Positions 6,791 through 55,786 of a stretch of 64,000 bases of DNA are shown piece by piece. The notes below the pieces were generated by a model that worked only from the letters and a program-made list of their open reading frames with translations, had not been told where the DNA came from and did no database searches. A program made the position numbers and the translations under genes. The stretch spans positions 379,331 through 443,330 of the forward strand of contig CP064968.1 of assembly GCA_016699245.1 (NCBI GenBank), read 5' to 3'. The stretch comes from Candidatus Kaiserbacteria bacterium (GTDB lineage Bacteria > Patescibacteriota > Minisyncoccia > Phycocordibacterales > UBA918). Position 1 is the stretch's first letter, and every line of letters starts with the position of its first letter.

Positions 6791-7323
6791 GCTTCCTTTT
6801 TTGTAGTTTTCTTTGTGCGCGCTGACTTTACCACAAGTGCTTTTTCTGGCTCAAGACACATTTCGTGCTGATAGTCGTCACTGACATGTTTTATGGTGCC
6901 ATAAAAATAGAGATATGTGATGAGATTGGCAAGTGCAAAGCCTGCAAAGAGCATGTTTGCCTCAATCGAGTATTTTGTAGAATTAAAGACTATCTCGATA
7001 GTGGGCGCGATAATCGCAATTTCGATGAGGTATTTAAGGCTCACATGGCGCTTTTGCGCATAAGAGACAAGAATTTTGTATGCCTTCACGAGCACGATAG
7101 TAAATGCAATAGTATGGAGCAAATCAAGCTCGAGGAGGTTGCGCTCAGGTGCCGAAAGGATAGTGTGTATTGAGCCAGAGATATCCATGAAGCCAGCCAC
7201 CACCGTCATAATCCCTGTCACGAGCGAGGTAATCATATAAAAGACAAGCGTGAGTGCTACAAAGTATACATATCCTGAGACGATAAAATTCATCACCTCC
7301 GCAACAAGACTTTCACGTTTCAT
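6787..7323 (-). CDS. multi-pass membrane protein (PsiE-like?), function unknown
   Basis: Four or more hydrophobic helices; no recognisable catalytic motif. Confidence 0.4.
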   Translation of the reverse strand: MKRESLVAEVMNFIVSGYVYFVALTLVFYMITSLVTGIMTVVAGFMDISGSIHTILSAPERNLLELDLLHTIAFTIVLVKAYKILVSYAQKRHVSLKYLIEIAIIAPTIEIVFNSTKYSIEANMLFAGFALANLITYLYFYGTIKHVSDDYQHEMCLEPEKALVVKSARTKKTTKKEA

Positions 7324-8310: not shown

Positions 8311-8372
8311 ATTATTGCCGACATCGTAAGTCGGCAATAAATATAAACGGCCGACTTACGATGTCGGCCGTT
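8311..8372. repeat. REP pair, same family as those flanking the RAYT gene
   Basis: cattattgccgacatcgtaagtcggcaa at 8311-8338 (identical to 401-427, flank included) and ggccgacttacgatgtcggccg at 8349-8370. Confidence 0.75.
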
Positions 8373-10546: not shown

Positions 10547-10617
10547 TGGGGTATCGTCTAATGGTAGGACATCAGGTTTTGGTCCTGAGTATCGAGGTTC
10601 GAGTCCTTGTACCCCAG
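10547..10617 (+). tRNA. tRNA-Gln (anticodon TTG)
   Basis: tggggtatcg...anticodon loop ttTTGgt...T-arm cgaggttcgagtccttg...acceptor tacccca + discriminator g. 5' end identical in pattern to E. coli tRNA-Gln (UGGGGUAUCG). Confidence 0.85.
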
Positions 10618-11143
10618 CTTGTTAACAAAAAGTCCCGCAAGGGATTTTTTGTGTTACAAGCTGGAGGTAAGCACAGTGTGGGACACTGTGCGTCAAGGAC
10701 TCGAAAACCTTCTCGTGATATTATTCGAGTGAAGCGAAGAATAATATCCGAAAGGTGTACTGAATTCGTAGAATTCGAGTCCTTGTACCCCAGCTTGTTA
10801 ACAAAAAGTCCCGCAAGGGATTTTTTGTGTTACAAGCTGGAGGTAAGCACAGTGTGGGACACTGTGCGTCAAGGACTCGAAAACCTTCTCGTGATATTAT
10901 TCGAGTGAAGCGAAGAATAATATCCGAAAGGTGTACTGAATTCGTAGAATTCGAGTCCTTGTACCCCAGCTTGTTAACAAAAAGTCCCGCAAGGGATTTT
11001 TTGTGTTACAAGCTGGAGGTAAGCACAGTGTGGGACACTGTGCGTCAAGGACGAGAAGACCTTGCCTGCTATTTTGTGACGTAAGGAAACAAAATAGCGA
11101 CAAGGTGTACTGAAGTCGTAAACTTCGAGTCCTTATACCCAAC
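10598..11143 (+). repeat. tandem array of 176 bp units (three copies, third diverged), each beginning with the last 20 nt of tRNA-Gln (ttcgagtccttgtaccccag)
   Basis: Copies of the tRNA 3' end at 10598, 10774, 10950 and degenerate at 11124. Units 1 and 2 are near-identical. Unit 3 replaces the inner hairpin with a different but equally perfect hairpin. Each unit has a terminator-like hairpin aaaaagtcccgcaagggatttttt and a segment caaggactcgaa complementary to the tRNA T-arm. Confidence 0.85.
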
Positions 11144-11176
11144 TCGCCACATTTAGTAATTAGGTGTAATATTAAT

Positions 11177-11503
11177 TTGTATATGGCATCACTCAACACA
11201 CACCGAAGCGGTAGTGTTCGAAGTATCATTTTTCGAGAGAAAGATGAGTGGTTTGGTGTTGCTCTCGAATTTAACATTGTTGAGGTAGGAGATTCACCAG
11301 AGGAGGTGATGATGCTTCTTGATGAGGCAATAAAAGGGTACGTTGAGTCAGCCCAAAAGGCGAAACTTTCTGTTCGGACTTTAAATCAAAAATCTGATCC
11401 TGTATATGAAAAACTGTGGGAGTCTCAGTCAAAACCACACAGAAAAACAGGAAAGCAAATTTATCGAGTCTCCTCTCAACCAATTTCCGCACTTGTTTCA
11501 TAA
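11177..11503 (+). CDS. hicB: HicB-family antitoxin (type II TA)
   Basis: SIIFREKDEWFGVALEFNIVEVGDSPEEVMMLLDEAIKGYVES matches the HicB N-terminal (UPF0150-like) fold. Immediately precedes the hicA-like gene. Confidence 0.6.
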   Translation: MYMASLNTHRSGSVRSIIFREKDEWFGVALEFNIVEVGDSPEEVMMLLDEAIKGYVESAQKAKLSVRTLNQKSDPVYEKLWESQSKPHRKTGKQIYRVSSQPISALVS

Positions 11504-11505
11504 AT

Positions 11506-11739
11506 ATGCCTCGCGGTTTCAACAACTGGAGTGCGGCACAAGTCATGAAGTTTTTGAAACGTCATTCTTTTACGCATTCCCACACACGGGGCAGCCATTT
11601 TTATTATGTAGCCAAAGTGAATGGTATTGATAGACAAGTATGTGTACCCGTACACGCTGGTGATAGTATCCACCCAAAAACCATGAAATCGATTATCCTC
11701 CAATCAGGCATTTCTGAAAACGAGTGGAAGAATAACTAA
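11506..11739 (+). CDS. hicA: HicA-family mRNA interferase toxin
   Basis: MPRGFNNWSAAQVMKFLKRHSFTHSHTRGSHFYYV...VPVHAGDSIHPKTMKSIILQSGI fits the HicA/YcfA consensus. ATG at 11506 lies 2 nt after the hicB stop. Confidence 0.65.
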   Translation: MPRGFNNWSAAQVMKFLKRHSFTHSHTRGSHFYYVAKVNGIDRQVCVPVHAGDSIHPKTMKSIILQSGISENEWKNN

Positions 11740-46378: not shown

Positions 46379-46497
46379 GGTTGTAAGCAAAGCTTTCTGA
46401 CTGCTCGCGCTCGAAAATAGAAATAATTTTCTATTTTGCTCGCTTGTTTGTCAGTCGATAGTTTCGACTAAAAGGAGAAAGTATCATACAACCTGAA
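46379..46497 (+). repeat. structured element shared with the tRNA-Tyr locus (ggttgtaagcaaagctttctga...tcagtcgatagttt...tcatacaacctgaac)
   Basis: Outer stem ggttgta/tacaacc and mid stem ctgac/gtcag. Inner 10 bp hairpin differs in sequence from the 55661-55786 copy but is perfect in both (compensatory changes). Confidence 0.65.
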
Positions 46498-46582
46498 CCG
46501 CGCCTGTGAGGCGTTCAGAGAACGATAAGGCGGGAGGGTTAACACCTCTATCATAGAAAATTACAAATTTCAGAAATAGTGT

Positions 46583-51253: not shown

Positions 51254-51562
51254 TTAGACATTCGAAAGTATTTTTGATATTGTAAACCCAAAAAATAAAC
51301 TTGACGTTAGGGCTATAATTATACCTGCAAAAAATAATCCTATCCCAAAACCAAAACCGAATTTGATTCCAGAACCGACTCCAAGAGATACGTTATTGTA
51401 TTCCTCAGGTATGGTGTACACACTCTCTCCCTTTGCTTGAGCATTTTGCAAGTCTGCAACCACTTCTTTCTCCACCTTCTTGAGATTTTTAACAAAGTAA
51501 TCAATCAGTGCTACGACAATTAGCACTACTGCGGTTAGTACGAGTATTATAAAGGAATCCAT
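51254..51562 (-). CDS. small membrane protein with Gly-rich C-terminal TM region
   Basis: Two TM helices; GIKFGFGFGIGLFFAG. Confidence 0.4.
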   Translation of the reverse strand: MDSFIILVLTAVVLIVVALIDYFVKNLKKVEKEVVADLQNAQAKGESVYTIPEEYNNVSLGVGSGIKFGFGFGIGLFFAGIIIALTSSLFFGFTISKILSNV

Positions 51563-51699
51563 ATACGCTAACTATAGTATGTAGAACTGTAGTTAGCAAC
51601 TTATTGCCATGTATGTAATGAGTTCAAGAATTCTAATACAATTTAACAAAAGAGTGCATGAAGAACTCCTCAAACGCGTTATATCACTGGAGCATCTTA

Positions 51700-52530
51700 T
51701 TTACATGGACCTATTCTCTGTAAATGCTCGTTTTGCGGTCACGAGTTGCTAATTATTTTAGTTCGCTTCGCTTCTAAAATAATAAGCACCTTCATAAATT
51801 CTTTTATGTAAAAGAATTTATGAAGGGCTCAGAAAATATAATCGCTACGCTTATTATTTTCTGGCCACCCCAGCTCGCTGTTCATCACTTTTTGAAAGTG
51901 ACTCACAACGCTCGTGAAATAGTTTCCCAAACTATTTCACCCCGTCGAGCACGTACGTGACGCAGGTCACCTCTTTGCGGTCACGATAAAATTATCTCCC
52001 AGAAAATTTTATCTAAGTCTTTTCAAAGAAAAGTCTAAGCACTCTCGACCCCGACTCACTCGCCTAGCGGCATCGTTCCGTCTCCCGCAAAGGACCGCAA
52101 GCAAAGCAGTTTGCTTGCTACACAAAAGAACAGACACTTTCGTGTCTGTTCTTTTGTGTTCCTTTGCGGGCCCACGAGGGCTCGAAACTTACAGTTTCAG
52201 TACCCCTTTAGGATACTTTTCTTCATTTCATTCGAAAAGATATCTCTAAAGGGCTTCAAATCCTGATCGCACAGTGCCCCGCACTGTGCTTGGGCCCGCC
52301 CAGATATACAAAAAGCTGTCTTATGACAGCTTTTTGTATATCTGGGCGGGCCCACGAGGATTTGAACATTACATGTTCAGTACCCGTTGTGGCTATTTTA
52401 TTTCTTCGCTCTGCGAATCATAAAATAGCACGCAACGGCTTCGAGCCCGTGCTCCTGTTTGCATTCGCAAACAGATGCGCTTCGTGGGCCCGCCATATTA
52501 AAACACCTCATCAAATGAGGTGTTTTAATA
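51700..52530. repeat. non-coding hairpin array: series of perfect 8-30 bp-arm palindromes, including three units carrying copies of the tRNA-Trp 3' end (gcgggcccacgagg...) in both orientations
   Basis: Perfect palindromes at about 51793-51830, 51886-51910, 52105-52160, 52293-52356 (arms include tgggcccgcc) and 52484-52544 (arms = tRNA-Trp 3' end plus terminator). Direct copies of the tRNA 3' segment at 52166-52186 and 52346-52366. Confidence 0.8.
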
Positions 52531-52604
52531 TGGCGGGCCCACGAGGGCTCGAACCTCGGTCGCTGGTTTTGGAGACCAGAATTCTACCACTGAAATATAG
52601 GCCC
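52531..52604 (-). tRNA. tRNA-Trp (anticodon CCA), CCA end encoded
   Basis: gggcctatatttcagtggtagaattctggtctCCAaaaccagcgaccgaggttcgagccctcgtgggcccgcca. Confidence 0.85.
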
Positions 52605-53126: not shown

Positions 53127-54005
53127 TTAAATTTTATTTATGCTATAGATTCTTCCAGGTCCCGCTTTATAGGATGGGCTAAAACTTGAATCACTTACCC
53201 AAGAAAATGTTTTATTCGATGAACTGTTTGAAATTGTTTTTGTACATCCTGCATTCATGCAAATGCCCGTATGAGATCGTGAACCGTCAGTCACAATAAC
53301 AATATCCCCAGCTTTCGCAGCTGATTGATCAACCAATGTTCCCCTACCTCCTGCAAGTGCTTGCTCCATTGACTTCACACTATTACCATCAATGGGACTT
53401 ATGCCTGCATCTTCTAGTACTTTGTTTACAGCCCATGCGCATGCAAGTGAGCCACCACCAGGACCTCCTGCCGTTGAAAAACCTTGTGCCCCGAGTGCAG
53501 CAGCAGCAATTGATCCTGCACTTCCTCCACCCGGATTCGTCATACCACCCGGACCTGTATTTGTCGTAGCACCACCACTTGGTCCTGTCATCGTGGCGGT
53601 CATCGTTGGATTATCTACACACTGTACTGTACCCCACACCTCAATACCTTTGCCATCACTCATGACGGTCATAAGTATCGTGTTCACAATAAGCCATGCA
53701 CCGAGGAGGATGAAGAAACCTATGATAGAGTTCGACATCATTTCTTTTCCTTCTGAGACTTTTCCAGTGTTCCCTGCGGACATCACCATTTTCATGCCAC
53801 CAAAGGCGAACATGAGGGCAACGATAGTTGCAGATGCGCCTATAAACCAAGTCATCAATCCCTGCCCCATAGCAACAAAGTCACAGACGCGACACATTGG
53901 TTCGGGAGGACCACCACCACAGGGGACTAGGCCTGCAGCGTACGTGACAGAGGCGGTGAGAAGGAAGAGGCTTGTGATGAATAGTATGCGTTGGTTGGTG
54001 GTCAT
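53127..54005 (-). CDS. secreted two-TM pilin-like N-terminal module fused to a C-terminal CHAP/NlpC-P60-like cysteine peptidase/amidase domain
   Basis: Signal peptide plus two hydrophobic helices (VirB2/TrbC-like topology). C-terminus has nucleophile Cys in SLACAWAVN and downstream GDIVIV...SHTGIC His. N-terminal 160 aa about 97% identical to the 54605 paralog. Confidence 0.55.
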   Translation of the reverse strand: MTTNQRILFITSLFLLTASVTYAAGLVPCGGGPPEPMCRVCDFVAMGQGLMTWFIGASATIVALMFAFGGMKMVMSAGNTGKVSEGKEMMSNSIIGFFILLGAWLIVNTILMTVMSDGKGIEVWGTVQCVDNPTMTATMTGPSGGATTNTGPGGMTNPGGGSAGSIAAAALGAQGFSTAGGPGGGSLACAWAVNKVLEDAGISPIDGNSVKSMEQALAGGRGTLVDQSAAKAGDIVIVTDGSRSHTGICMNAGCTKTISNSSSNKTFSWVSDSSFSPSYKAGPGRIYSINKI

Positions 54006-54604: not shown

Positions 54605-55441
54605 TTATGGTCCATACTTTGTAATACACGCTTGAGCTTTTGCATTACAATTGGCACAGGTCCAACTACTATATCCGCTCTGTGACACCAGCTTTTTTGC
54701 TACCTCAGCGTTGCACGATGCATTGGTACAAGACGAAAAACTACTGCAACTCGTGCCTTTTGCAGCACTTTCCCAAGTTGATTTAATGACTTGAAATGTG
54801 CCACATGCACTACCGCTTTTATTTTGCGCTGTAGGATTACCAGAACTCTCTGTCATCGCGATACACGACATGACATTTGCTTGTGAAGGAGTAAAGCCTG
54901 CGGCTGTAAGCGCATTCACACTGCACGCCGGATTAAGGCTCCCACACTGTATACCACTTCCTCCCCCCGGATTCGTCATACCACCCGGACCTGTATTTGT
55001 CGTAGCACCACCACTTGGCCCCGTCATCGTGGCGGTCATCGTAGGATTATCAACACACTGTACCGTACCCCACACCTCAACACCTTTACCATCACTCATG
55101 ACGGTCATAAGTATCGTATTCACAATAAGCCATGCACCGAGGAGGATGAAGAAACCTATGATAGAGTTCGACATCATTTCTTTTCCTTCTGAGACTTTTC
55201 CAGTGTTCCCTGCGGACATCACCATCTTCATACCCCCAAAGGCGAACATGAGGGCAACGATACTTGCAGACGCACCAATAAACCAAGTCATCAATCCCTG
55301 CCCCATAGCAACAAAGTCACAGACGCGACACATTGATTCGGGAGGACCACCACCACAGGGGACAAGCCCTGCAGCGTACGTGACAGAGGCGGTGAGAAGG
55401 AAGAGTGCTGTGGTGAATAGTATGCGGTGGTTGGTGGTCAT
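54605..55441 (-). CDS. paralog of 53127: same pilin-like N-terminal module fused to a C-terminal lytic-transglycosylase (SLT)-like domain
   Basis: CIAMTESSGNPTAQNKSGSACGTFQV resembles the SLT catalytic E-S...GLMQ block; several Cys pairs; N-terminal 160 aa near-identical to 53127 gene. Confidence 0.55.
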   Translation of the reverse strand: MTTNHRILFTTALFLLTASVTYAAGLVPCGGGPPESMCRVCDFVAMGQGLMTWFIGASASIVALMFAFGGMKMVMSAGNTGKVSEGKEMMSNSIIGFFILLGAWLIVNTILMTVMSDGKGVEVWGTVQCVDNPTMTATMTGPSGGATTNTGPGGMTNPGGGSGIQCGSLNPACSVNALTAAGFTPSQANVMSCIAMTESSGNPTAQNKSGSACGTFQVIKSTWESAAKGTSCSSFSSCTNASCNAEVAKKLVSQSGYSSWTCANCNAKAQACITKYGP

Positions 55442-55660: not shown

Positions 55661-55786
55661 GGTTGTAAGCAAAAGCTTTCTGATTGCACTCGTGTCATGT
55701 ATGAAAGTGAACTTTCATACTGTACACTCGTTTATCAGTCGATAGTTTACGAGTGAAGCGAGATAAACTATCATACAACCTGAACA
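55661..55786 (+). repeat. second copy of the structured element seen upstream of tRNA-Leu; contains the conserved-loop hairpin gatagtttacGAGTGAAGCGAGataaactatc
   Basis: Shares ggttgtaagcaaa(a)gctttctga..tcagtcgatagttt..tcatacaacctgaac with 46379-46497. Hairpin loop matches the loop of the tRNA-Gln repeat hairpin (ttattcGAGTGAAGCGAAGaataa). Confidence 0.65.

Follow-up and report, generated by a model that had tools for sequence, protein, structure and literature searches.

Why should a kilobase next to a tRNA gene, apparently devoid of coding capacity, be filled with long perfect palindromes that contain copies of the end of that tRNA? The question is raised by positions 51563-52604 of a 64,000-nt stretch of the Candidatus Kaiserbacteria contig CP064968.1 (the window in what follows), where a preliminary description made from the sequence alone had noticed an array of hairpins downstream of a minus-strand tRNA-Trp gene. 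The answer that emerges here is that each palindrome is a junction, comprising a copy of the tRNA end, a hairpin and an inverted copy of the tRNA end, and that the conserved element, which the preliminary description missed, is the adjoining structured core of ~135 nt. These cores fall into two families of structured elements, type 1 and type 2, which occur across the Patescibacteria and, judging by Rfam 15 and the literature open to search, are apparently undescribed. The reading that we favour, at a probability of roughly 0.45, is that the modules built around these cores are integrative cassettes of a non-autonomous kind, which would fold in single-stranded form, enter tRNA genes at the T-loop, regenerate the tRNA and push older copies outward.

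Read on the strand of the tRNA, the same plan is repeated after tRNA-Trp: a segment X, a hairpin H, a segment X', a core and the next X. X (TTCGAGCCCTCGTGGGCCCGCC(A)) extends from the first T-loop base to the 3' end of tRNA-Trp, H is a perfect hairpin that differs from repeat to repeat, and X' is the reverse complement of X, split by a hairpin (P2) exactly between its acceptor part and its T part. The repeating entity in this array is ~180 bp, and modules measure ~180-240 bp overall. The long perfect palindromes are X-H-X': in the first, hairpin H1 (52495-52530) separates the tRNA's own X1 from module A's inverted copy, X'a, and in the second, hairpin H2 separates X2, the tail of module A, from the X'a of module B. 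Because a perfect 30-nt inverted repeat cannot arise by chance in 1.6 kb, the palindromes are non-random; the single-strand fold of 52160-52604 has z = -24 against shuffles. The order after tRNA-Trp is two type-1 modules (A and B), a type-2 module (C), a decayed type-2-like module (D) and the leader of a membrane-protein gene, which contains no recognisable part of any module (Table 1).

The embedding of tRNA 3'-end copies in perfect palindromes, as first reported, was borne out by a repeat search, which returned the 30-nt arms and, in direct orientation, two further occurrences of the tRNA 3' segment, one at 52166-52189 that shares 96% identity with the copy in the tRNA and one at 52346-52369. 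The region is also non-coding, as had been proposed; its open reading frames (ORFs) are limited to some of 42-52 aa and an implausible 139-aa plus-strand ORF that runs antisense through the tRNA. The hairpins first listed all exist, some of them 2-15 nt away from where they had been placed: those given as 51886-51910 and 51930-51956 are the hairpins of module D at ~51885-51901, with 7-nt arms, and at 51914-51940, with small palindromes around 51950-51970. That these distal hairpins belong to a second family had escaped notice. Around hairpin H3 an outer inverted repeat (52084-52100/52154-52170, 17 nt, 88%) pairs the drifted tail CCCGCAAAGGA with the X' of module C. In module D the segment TCGTGACC+GCAAAA is a direct repeat of the end of module C at 51974-51986, and the type-2 covariance model gives a weak partial match only (51741-51793, E 0.08).

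The preliminary description had also likened the Trp array to one that follows tRNA-Gln, and this likeness holds, as one covariance model (R1) matches both. Within the window R1 finds exactly five units, three after tRNA-Gln and two after tRNA-Trp; these five are the seed sequences of the model, and the Gln units score 142-143 bits. The full order of a type-1 unit is X'a, P2 (often with a TGGGA/CGGGG loop), X'b, GAAGMC at the junction, the long and AT-rich hairpin P4, GKGTACTGAA, the short hairpin P5, whose GTA triloop is invariant, and a TTCRAR tail, the 3' strand of P5 continuing into the TTC of the next X; the junction segment named beside P5 is GTACTGAA. All five cores fold far better than shuffled sequences (z -4.6 to -9.5). 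The first two Gln repeats are identical; in the third, P4 differs and the tail has decayed; the tails match the tRNA at 100%, 100% and 81% in the Gln array, and at 86% and 95% in the Trp array. The other two tRNA genes of the window, tRNA-Leu and tRNA-Tyr, carry no units.

The phenomenon is phylum-wide rather than local, a point that was likewise missed at first. Scanning the P5-region motif over one genome per GTDB species returned at least 120 loci, almost all of them in Patescibacteria, with Saccharibacteria, Paceibacteria, Zambryski-, Taylor-, Nomura- and Kaiserbacteria among the matches listed; the three non-Patescibacteria motif matches among those listed were rejected by R1. In the 120 loci listed R1 recognises 123 + 26 = 149 type-1 units, and hence the family has at least 149. 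In the 123-sequence alignment 93.6% of helix cells are paired, compared with 62.6% in shuffles, and the covariation score is 0.645 against 0.157 in shuffles, a value reached in 0/500 of them, with slid partners scoring 0.05-0.10; double changes are found in all six helices. Type-2 units share the motif chain GACGGAG-hairpin-GAGYCGGGGTCGMG-hairpin-YYGTGACC plus tail (the core can also be given as GACGGAG-hairpin-GAGYCGGGGTCG-hairpin-GTGACC), which is common to module C and loci L024, L057, L083 and L091, and their front end is X'a-P2-X'b, as in type 1. A second covariance model (R2) detects 39 type-2 units in 100 loci; 92.3% of their helix cells are paired, where shuffles reach 65.9%, and covariation scores 0.62, compared with 0.19 for shuffles. 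The preliminary description would have given up its proposal had no structure been conserved in related genomes; the 149 type-1 and 39 type-2 matches, with their strong covariation, show that it is. Searches of Rfam 15 at gathering and permissive thresholds, with the window and three other loci, returned tRNA only, plus spurious miRNA-like hairpin matches below threshold, and no description of either family was found in the literature searched.

Units of both families are linked to tRNA genes: they lie almost always immediately downstream of one, and their ends correspond to it. For 83 of 135 pattern-defined units a same-strand tRNA ends 96-187 nt (median 138) upstream of the T-loop copy, the linked units represent at least 18 tRNA identities, and in 40 of the 83 the 20-nt tail is 100% identical to the T-loop-to-3'-end segment of the linked tRNA. 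An intact tDNA accompanied by a displaced 3' fragment is the usual mark left by elements that have integrated into tRNA genes (PMC4383910). The majority of occurrences are minimal, at ~140 nt and without cargo, most spacers are canonical, terminator-like A-tract/GC-stem/T-tract hairpins, and X-H-X' forms a continuous quasi-palindrome in many genomes. At L010, L012, L047 and L070 tRNA-Asn-like 3' ends stand upstream of modules without an ARAGORN tRNA call; here group I introns probably interrupt the tRNA genes, which annotation tools would therefore miss, such introns being common in patescibacterial tRNAs and sited in the anticodon loop (PMC13011429). Downstream genes are co-oriented with the units in 66 cases and opposite in 30, which we judge to be close to ordinary gene co-orientation.

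Individual loci add some observations of their own. At L129 (6609-6852), and at L127, tRNA-Gly(ccc) is followed by a type-2 module within GC-rich sequence (64% across the match), and the P2 hairpin of L129 is identical to that of module B in the window (AGCACAGTGCGGGGCACTGTGCG); the two may share an ancestor, or the front end may have passed from one module type and host to another. In two pairs of related species (L064 1513-1754 versus L107 3485-3726; L068 314-626 versus L086 904-1207) the block of tRNA-Tyr plus module is inverted among otherwise collinear flanking genes.

Table 1. Features of the tRNA-Trp array and of its tRNA-Gln counterpart, in window coordinates.
Feature	Position	Strand	Description
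Leader of 102-aa membrane-protein gene (gene 51254-51562)	51563-51731	minus	Promoter-like site 51599->51571
Module D, degenerate expanded type-2-like remnant	51732-51962	minus	From repeat search and motif scan; keeps GAGCTGGGGTGG, GAGCTGGGGT, GAAGCGAAGCGAAC-tipped hairpin, TCGTGACC+GCAAAA, several extra hairpins
Module D hairpin	51789-51826		Perfect 18-nt arms 51789-51806/51809-51826
Module D hairpin	~51885-51901		7-nt arms
Module D hairpin	51914-51940		Perfect 12-nt arms 51914-51925/51929-51940
Module C, type-2 core	51963-52116	minus	R2 79.9 bits (sequence was in seed); P2 (AGCAAGCAAACTGCTTTGCTTGC), X' (GGTCCTTTGCGGG), GACGGAA-hairpin-GAGTCGGGGTCGAGAG, two hairpins, TCGTGACC plus drifted tail GCAAAG
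Hairpin H3	52120-52159		Perfect 18-nt arms 52120-52137/52142-52159; between module B tail and module C
Module B, type-1 core	52165-52299	minus	R1 139.6 bits, E 9e-27; P2 CACAGTGCGGGGCACTGTG (conserved TGGGA/CGGGG-type loop), tail X3 TTCGAGCCCTCGTGGGCCCGC, X'b AGGATTTGAA
Palindrome 2	52291-52354		Perfect 30-nt arms 52291-52320/52325-52354; arms include TGGGCCCGCC
Module A, type-1 core	52345-52497	minus	R1 104 bits, E 1.7e-19; fold z -9.5; X' (GGCGGGCCCACGA, hairpin P2, GGGCTCGAA), P4, junction GGGTACTGAA, P5 with GTA loop, tail X2 (TTCAAATCCTCGTGGGCCCGCC)
Palindrome 1	52482-52544		Perfect 30-nt arms 52482-52511/52515-52544; arms include tRNA 3' end TCGTGGGCCCGCC
X1, last 23 nt of tRNA-Trp	52531-52553	minus	TTCGAGCCCTCGTGGGCCCGCCA; segment copied in array
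tRNA-Trp(cca)	52531-52604	minus	Intact (ARAGORN; Rfam tRNA 60.2 bits)
Sister array	10547-11145	plus	tRNA-Gln(ttg) 10547-10618, then three type-1 modules
Gln type-1 cores	10661-10795, 10837-10971, 11013-11145	plus	

The relationship between X' and the copies of X that surround it indicates what the unit of the array is. The X' of module A is the perfect antisense of the tRNA's own X1 (TTCGAGCCC...) and not of the tail of module A (TTCAAATCC...), and similarly the X'b of module B (AGGATTTGAA) is antisense to the upstream copy X2 and not to its own tail. Across loci whose copies differ by 1-4 bases X' fits the upstream copy by 18:5 in the T part and by 13:4 in the acceptor part; the fit was scored part by part, gapped scoring having been dropped as confounded by the P2 insertion and by unequal query lengths. 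As X' tracks the upstream X, X, H, X' and core behave as one module, and the match is expected if X-H-X'-core move together with a crossover at the 5' edge of X. The palindromes are thus a maintained feature, and the downstream tail is a displaced older 3' end. Distal tails and modules decay, as seen in the third Gln unit, in the degenerate Trp modules C and D and at many other loci. Identical repeats within an array are found in Gln units 1 and 2 and at L027, and near-identical internal hairpins occur at different tRNAs within one genome (the Gln and Trp B units of the window, L044, L085 and L078); both observations speak for recent spread. At three unrelated loci (L042, L076 and L085) the T-stem copy in the tail gives way to YCTTACAG, which is complementary to CTGTAAG in the loop region of P5.

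Two conserved wobble pairs, a U.G in P5 of type 1 (95/122) and a G.U in the GGTCG/TGACC helix of type 2 (27/35), distinguish the two strands, and G.U pairs outnumber A.C by 166 to 71. This bias supports the view that the modules fold as single strands on the tRNA (sense) strand. Their loops are mostly triloops of the GNA/GGG type, and the GCGNAGC mini-hairpin occurs 20 times against 3.7 expected; GNA/GGG triloops and GCGNAGC mini-hairpins are hallmarks of stable DNA hairpins. When the stretch from the tRNA through module B is folded as a single strand, X-H-X' hairpins dominate and the cloverleaf is lost. A read-through transcript would thus sequester the 3' half of the tRNA in X-H-X', which argues against simple co-transcription.

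Some loci hold kilobases of cargo downstream of the tRNA, bounded on the far side by a core with a tail that still matches that tRNA. The island at L091 carries a Shedu SduA gene, and that at L078 carries SMODS and SLATT genes. In the latter, type-1 cores at 1285-1418 and 7082-7212, which are 98% identical, including a tRNA-Ser-specific X', and differ by a compensatory change in P5, bracket a 5.7-kb island with SMODS/AGS_C and SLATT_4 genes. The distal tail of L078 belongs to another tRNA (TTCGACTCCTGTCCCATCCACCA), as though two tRNAs of different identity had recombined at the T-loop.

From the anatomy, family membership, covariation, tRNA linkage, tail identity, upstream match of X' and cargo-bearing cases described above, we infer mobile cassettes. 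X would pair with X' within one strand, probably of single-stranded DNA (ssDNA), to give a duplex image of the 3' end of the tRNA gene beside the multi-helix junction of the core, and a putative recombinase, encoded elsewhere and acting in trans, would exchange strands at the 5' edge of the T-loop. The X of the module would become the new tRNA 3' end, H would supply its terminator (or, rarely, be replaced by cargo genes), and the previous 3' end would be displaced downstream as the tail. Repeated insertion would produce arrays in which the oldest and most decayed modules lie farthest from the tRNA. The suggestion in the preliminary description that the palindromes might be attC- or IS-end-like recombination substrates agrees with the mechanism preferred here. 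A bolder proposal, which we consider unlikely, is that X' acts as a guide that selects its target by pairing with the 3' end of a particular tRNA gene, in a nucleic acid-guided insertion system that could be retargeted to at least 18 tRNAs and would ferry defence cassettes where DNA enters single-stranded, an extension of the logic of IS608 guides and bridge RNAs. Alternatively, X' would be a cis-encoded anti-tRNA RNA, checked by the tail, that is able to unfold and silence its own tRNA.

Several observations weigh against the cassette model. All-versus-all clustering of 1,628 neighbouring ORFs from the 120 listed loci revealed housekeeping families only, and thus no recombinase in cis, and a regex check of the window ORFs found no tyrosine-recombinase motifs. 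The only single-strand DNA enzyme in the window is a Y1_Tnp protein resembling a REP-associated tyrosine transposase (RAYT; REP, repetitive extragenic palindrome), which has different, REP-like hairpins of its own and homologues near units in 1 of the 120 listed loci. Strain-level look-ups by exact protein returned no match or one 1.4-kb contig that ends in the array, and among them no excised circles, empty sites or strain differences in presence were found. No autonomous carrier came to light on viral contigs, where the single motif match was rejected by R1, leaving no type-1 copies found there. Retargeting to at least 18 tRNAs requires a change of both X and X'. The T-stem of the tRNA, X'b and the tail change together (CCTTC, CCAAC, CCTAC), a three-way co-variation that looks like host-function selection or concerted evolution and not like a passive scar. 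Units at the same tRNA in related species are, moreover, more conserved than their flanks: the block of tRNA plus unit is 96.7% identical between L064 and L107, where the flanks are at 70-82%, and the unit shared by L031 and L094 is 90% identical, with flanks at 75-88%. Finally, in a recurrent class of tails the sixth T-loop base is followed by an insertion of either 2 nt (AY; for example at L009, L033, L048 and L101) or a 14-nt covarying mini-hairpin (AAGCGTACTCGCGG or AAATGTACTCATGG; for example at L010, L012, L050, L064 and L068). Tails with such an insertion could not serve as a tRNA 3' end, and simple displacement does not explain them.

It could be argued that the cores are transcribed when the polymerase reads through from the promoter of the tRNA, and that they serve as structured non-coding RNAs or functional 3' trailers in which X' and the tail mimic the acceptor/T helix. 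Such an RNA might act as a processing entry site, as a decoy for acceptor-stem binders, or as an antisense regulator of its own tRNA, with the tail masking its activity. No promoter other than that of the tRNA comes into question, because the units are always in the orientation of the tRNA and no internal promoter is predicted. Strong covariation, sense-strand folding and the excess of G.U over A.C would all suit an RNA, as would the location of P2 exactly where the tRNA body leaves the acceptor/T-stem stack, and E. coli tyrT, whose 178-bp repeats yield the rtT RNA, offers a precedent. The same proposal accommodates the observations that units at orthologous tRNAs outconserve the flanking genes and that T-stem, X' and tail co-vary. 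In most loci, however, a canonical terminator-like hairpin separates the tRNA from the core, and a transcript that did read through would fold into X-H-X', destroying the cloverleaf. X' pairs through the discriminator base, so that there is no free 3' end as in tRNA mimics, and its fit to the upstream tRNA is closer than its fit to its own tail. Occupancy is uneven, with units at two of the four tRNAs in the window, and the tRNAs involved vary between species; arrays, decayed distal copies and kilobases of cargo between tRNA and core are unexpected for an RNA gene. The loops are mostly triloops rather than GNRA or UNCG tetraloops, and Rfam contains no match. On balance we regard an RNA function, the main rival of the cassette model, as somewhat unlikely.

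A repeat similar to REPs and bacterial interspersed mosaic elements (BIMEs), or to miniature inverted-repeat transposable elements (MITEs), whether domesticated or selfish, seems improbable. Here the unit would be an extra-stable bidirectional terminator or structural element at tRNA ends, kept perfect by template-switching during replication of the nested quasi-palindromes, without any site-specific integration. The continuous quasi-palindrome that X-H-X' forms in many loci fits this, the co-variation of X, X' and tail is what template-switch correction of quasi-palindromes would give, and identical tandem repeats can come from slippage or unequal exchange. A RAYT-like gene with REP-like hairpins is, in addition, present in the same genome: a Y1_Tnp ORF of 238 aa at 454-1170 (Pfam; IS200/RAYT-like, HYH motif) is flanked, and once interrupted in frame, by hairpins of the form G[CT]CGAC-TTACGAT-GTCG[GA]C in both orientations (403-1255), and another inverted REP-like pair lies at 8319-8366. 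The hairpins cognate to this RAYT have a different sequence, however. The window contains seven occurrences of the flanking hairpin CGACTTACGATGTCG, none of them within a tRNA array, the modules bear no relation to GCCGAC-TTACGAT-GTCGGC, and the array repeats do not match the RAYT-flanking hairpins. To judge from its sequence, the RAYT locus is a classic REP-RAYT arrangement unrelated to the tRNA modules. The RAYT was also considered as the mobilising enzyme of the modules and rejected, given its own different hairpins and its lack of co-occurrence with units. The REP-like explanation further leaves unexplained the conserved multi-helix cores with invariant single-stranded motifs, the existence of two separate families, the exclusive linkage to tRNAs, the exact 20-nt copy from T-loop to 3' end and the cargo cases.

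That the units are passive scars, the attR arms of deleted integrase-encoding islands or prophages with functionless cores, is very unlikely. An intact tRNA with a direct displaced 3' fragment is indeed the classical island signature (PMC4383910), and some loci do have cargo, but no integrase lies beside any of the 120 listed loci, copies are absent from viral contigs and most occurrences are minimal and cargo-free. Scars, moreover, would not keep a phylum-wide compensatory structure or a tRNA-matched inverted copy. An assembly artefact arising from chimeric or fold-back reads, the misassembly that the preliminary description had feared, can be dismissed as a general explanation: although an independent short-read contig with the downstream gene (L122) ends at the 51789-51826 hairpin and some public arrays contain N-runs, X-H-X'-core recurs in more than 100 independent assemblies, among them megabase contigs and one complete chromosome (OZ246398.1), and does so in sequences that differ from one another and show compensatory changes.

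Several other identities were considered and rejected. The units are not oversized, pseudogene or intron-containing tRNAs, as the upstream tRNA is intact and they have no D arm or anticodon arm; nor is X'a a copy of the tRNA 5' strand, for it complements the 3' strand (GGGCCCA) and is unlike the tRNA's own 5' strand (GGGCCUA). A group I intron was rejected on the intact upstream tRNA and the absence of a RF00028/Intron_gpI match. TTCGAA is not a 6-bp target-site duplication, as X'b is antisense, rather than a repeat, for non-palindromic T-loops (ACTTGAA for TTCAAGT), and a MITE is incompatible with X'/X inverted repeats that differ for every tRNA and an X'b that is not a duplicated target. Comparison by eye with hammerhead, twister, pistol and hatchet cores gave no match to self-cleaving ribozymes, and Rfam returned none. 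A phage or plasmid attP origin was rejected together with the sole viral-contig match. The TIGR-Tas arrays of PMC12045711 were judged unrelated; such arrays reportedly consist of units of ~36 nt and are not known to be linked to tRNAs.

The surroundings of the arrays offer further observations. The last Gln module is immediately followed, within 11177-11739, by a gene for a HicA toxin (Pfam PF07927), which may point to mobility; an overlapping 108-aa ORF upstream of it, without a Pfam match, is a possible partner antitoxin. The module-free tRNA-Leu and tRNA-Tyr genes have in common an element ~85-100 nt upstream of the gene (46448-46498 and 55735-55785), composed of TCAGTCGATAGTTT, a hairpin and TATCATACAACCTGAAC, with a 17-mer identical in both. 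On the minus strand, the neighbouring secreted/membrane-protein genes at 53127-54005 and 54605-55441 are near-identical over their first ~165 residues and differ in their C-termini, as if a tandem duplication had occurred recently and domains had been swapped. No relatives of the upstream 151-aa protein turned up in a metagenome scan.

The Patescibacteria comprise a large share of bacterial diversity, with tiny genomes, few recognised mobile elements and poorly understood gene exchange. Both families described here are phylum-wide, lie outside Rfam 15 and are definable by covariance models that can be rebuilt. If the cassette model is correct, it describes a system that could stockpile small islands of defence or toxin-antitoxin genes beside tRNAs while having no integrase linked to it, and if the inverted copy is a targeting guide, the module would constitute a natural, compact and retargetable device for site-specific insertion. 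Irrespective of mechanism, perfect palindromes and tandem repeats next to tRNAs are real in these genomes and will break short-read assemblies and confuse tools that look for islands or tRNA fragments.

The model resembles integron attC cassettes, the attP of CTXphi and tRNA-targeting islands, yet the modules belong to none of these systems, having no intI or GTTRRRY site, no integrase and no dif. The attC sites of integrons are folded single-stranded sites conserved in structure and not in sequence (PMC5027507, PMC4792948), and the modules similarly present a structure-conserved single-strand fold as the candidate recombination site. Like the modules, integron cassettes form arrays of units at a fixed site with the newest unit proximal, their attC is an imperfect inverted repeat whose active form is a single strand, folded so as to leave bulges or extrahelical bases, the inverted half of each unit matches the start of its own cassette, and ORF-less cassettes coexist with others whose cargo includes toxin-antitoxin and defence genes (PMC5027507, PMC4792948). 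In contrast, the fixed site of the modules is a tRNA gene and not attI, and neither the regex check of the window nor the search for a recurrent protein family across the 120 listed loci found intI and attI beside an array. The R''/R' cores of attC (RYYYAAC/GTTRRRY) are absent; the junctions read NNN|TTCRAR, with C, T, G or A before the TT, and thus N|TTCRAR in place of G|TTRRRY. The inverted repeat of the modules is ~20 nt and tRNA-specific, most units contain only a hairpin, and the conserved cores (GKGTACTGAA/GTA loop, GAGYCGGGGTCG/GTGACC) have no attC counterpart.

In tRNA-targeting islands, tycheposons and non-autonomous CIME-like (cis-mobilizable) elements the tRNA is regenerated and the displaced 3' fragment is direct, as in the modules (PMC4383910; bioRxiv 10.1101/2020.12.28.424599). 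These elements likewise match the modules in an identity block that starts in the T-loop, in tandem accretion and in defence cargo. With respect to the signature used by Islander, the intact tDNA and displaced direct fragment are present (PMC4383910), whereas an integrase within the island is not: the 180-240 bp modules have no ORF, and no integrase-like family occurs near the 120 listed loci. The modules further differ from these elements in their size of ~180 bp, the inverted copy of the att core, the phylum-wide folded core and the range of at least 18 tRNA identities served by one family.

Integrative mobile elements exploiting Xer (IMEX) of the CTXphi type use a folded single-stranded attP(+), in which inverted att-like segments ~90-110 nt apart anneal, as a substrate for the host XerCD; they need no recombinase of their own and typically form tandem arrays. 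The modules target a tRNA gene and not dif and carry no phage genes, and the use of a host recombinase is conjectural here. In E. coli, tandem repeats of ~180 bp (178 bp) follow the tRNA gene tyrT, each ending in a copy of the tRNA 3' terminus, and give the rtT RNA (RF00391). The modules have no Rfam match to RF00391, and the tyrT repeats are not known to have an inverted copy or long palindrome and represent one locus rather than a family at many tRNAs. REPs, BIMEs and elements derived from IS200/IS605 are, like the modules, small intergenic hairpin repeats that are active single-stranded. The resemblance to the single-strand transposition of IS200/IS605 (PATE-like) elements lies only in the pairing of X' with the flanking X. 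In IS608, internal guide bases pair with the flanking target, which resembles the pairing of X' with X; the modules are about five times longer, are built on a multi-helix core, are strictly linked to tRNAs, and pair with their flank over ~20 nt as opposed to 4.

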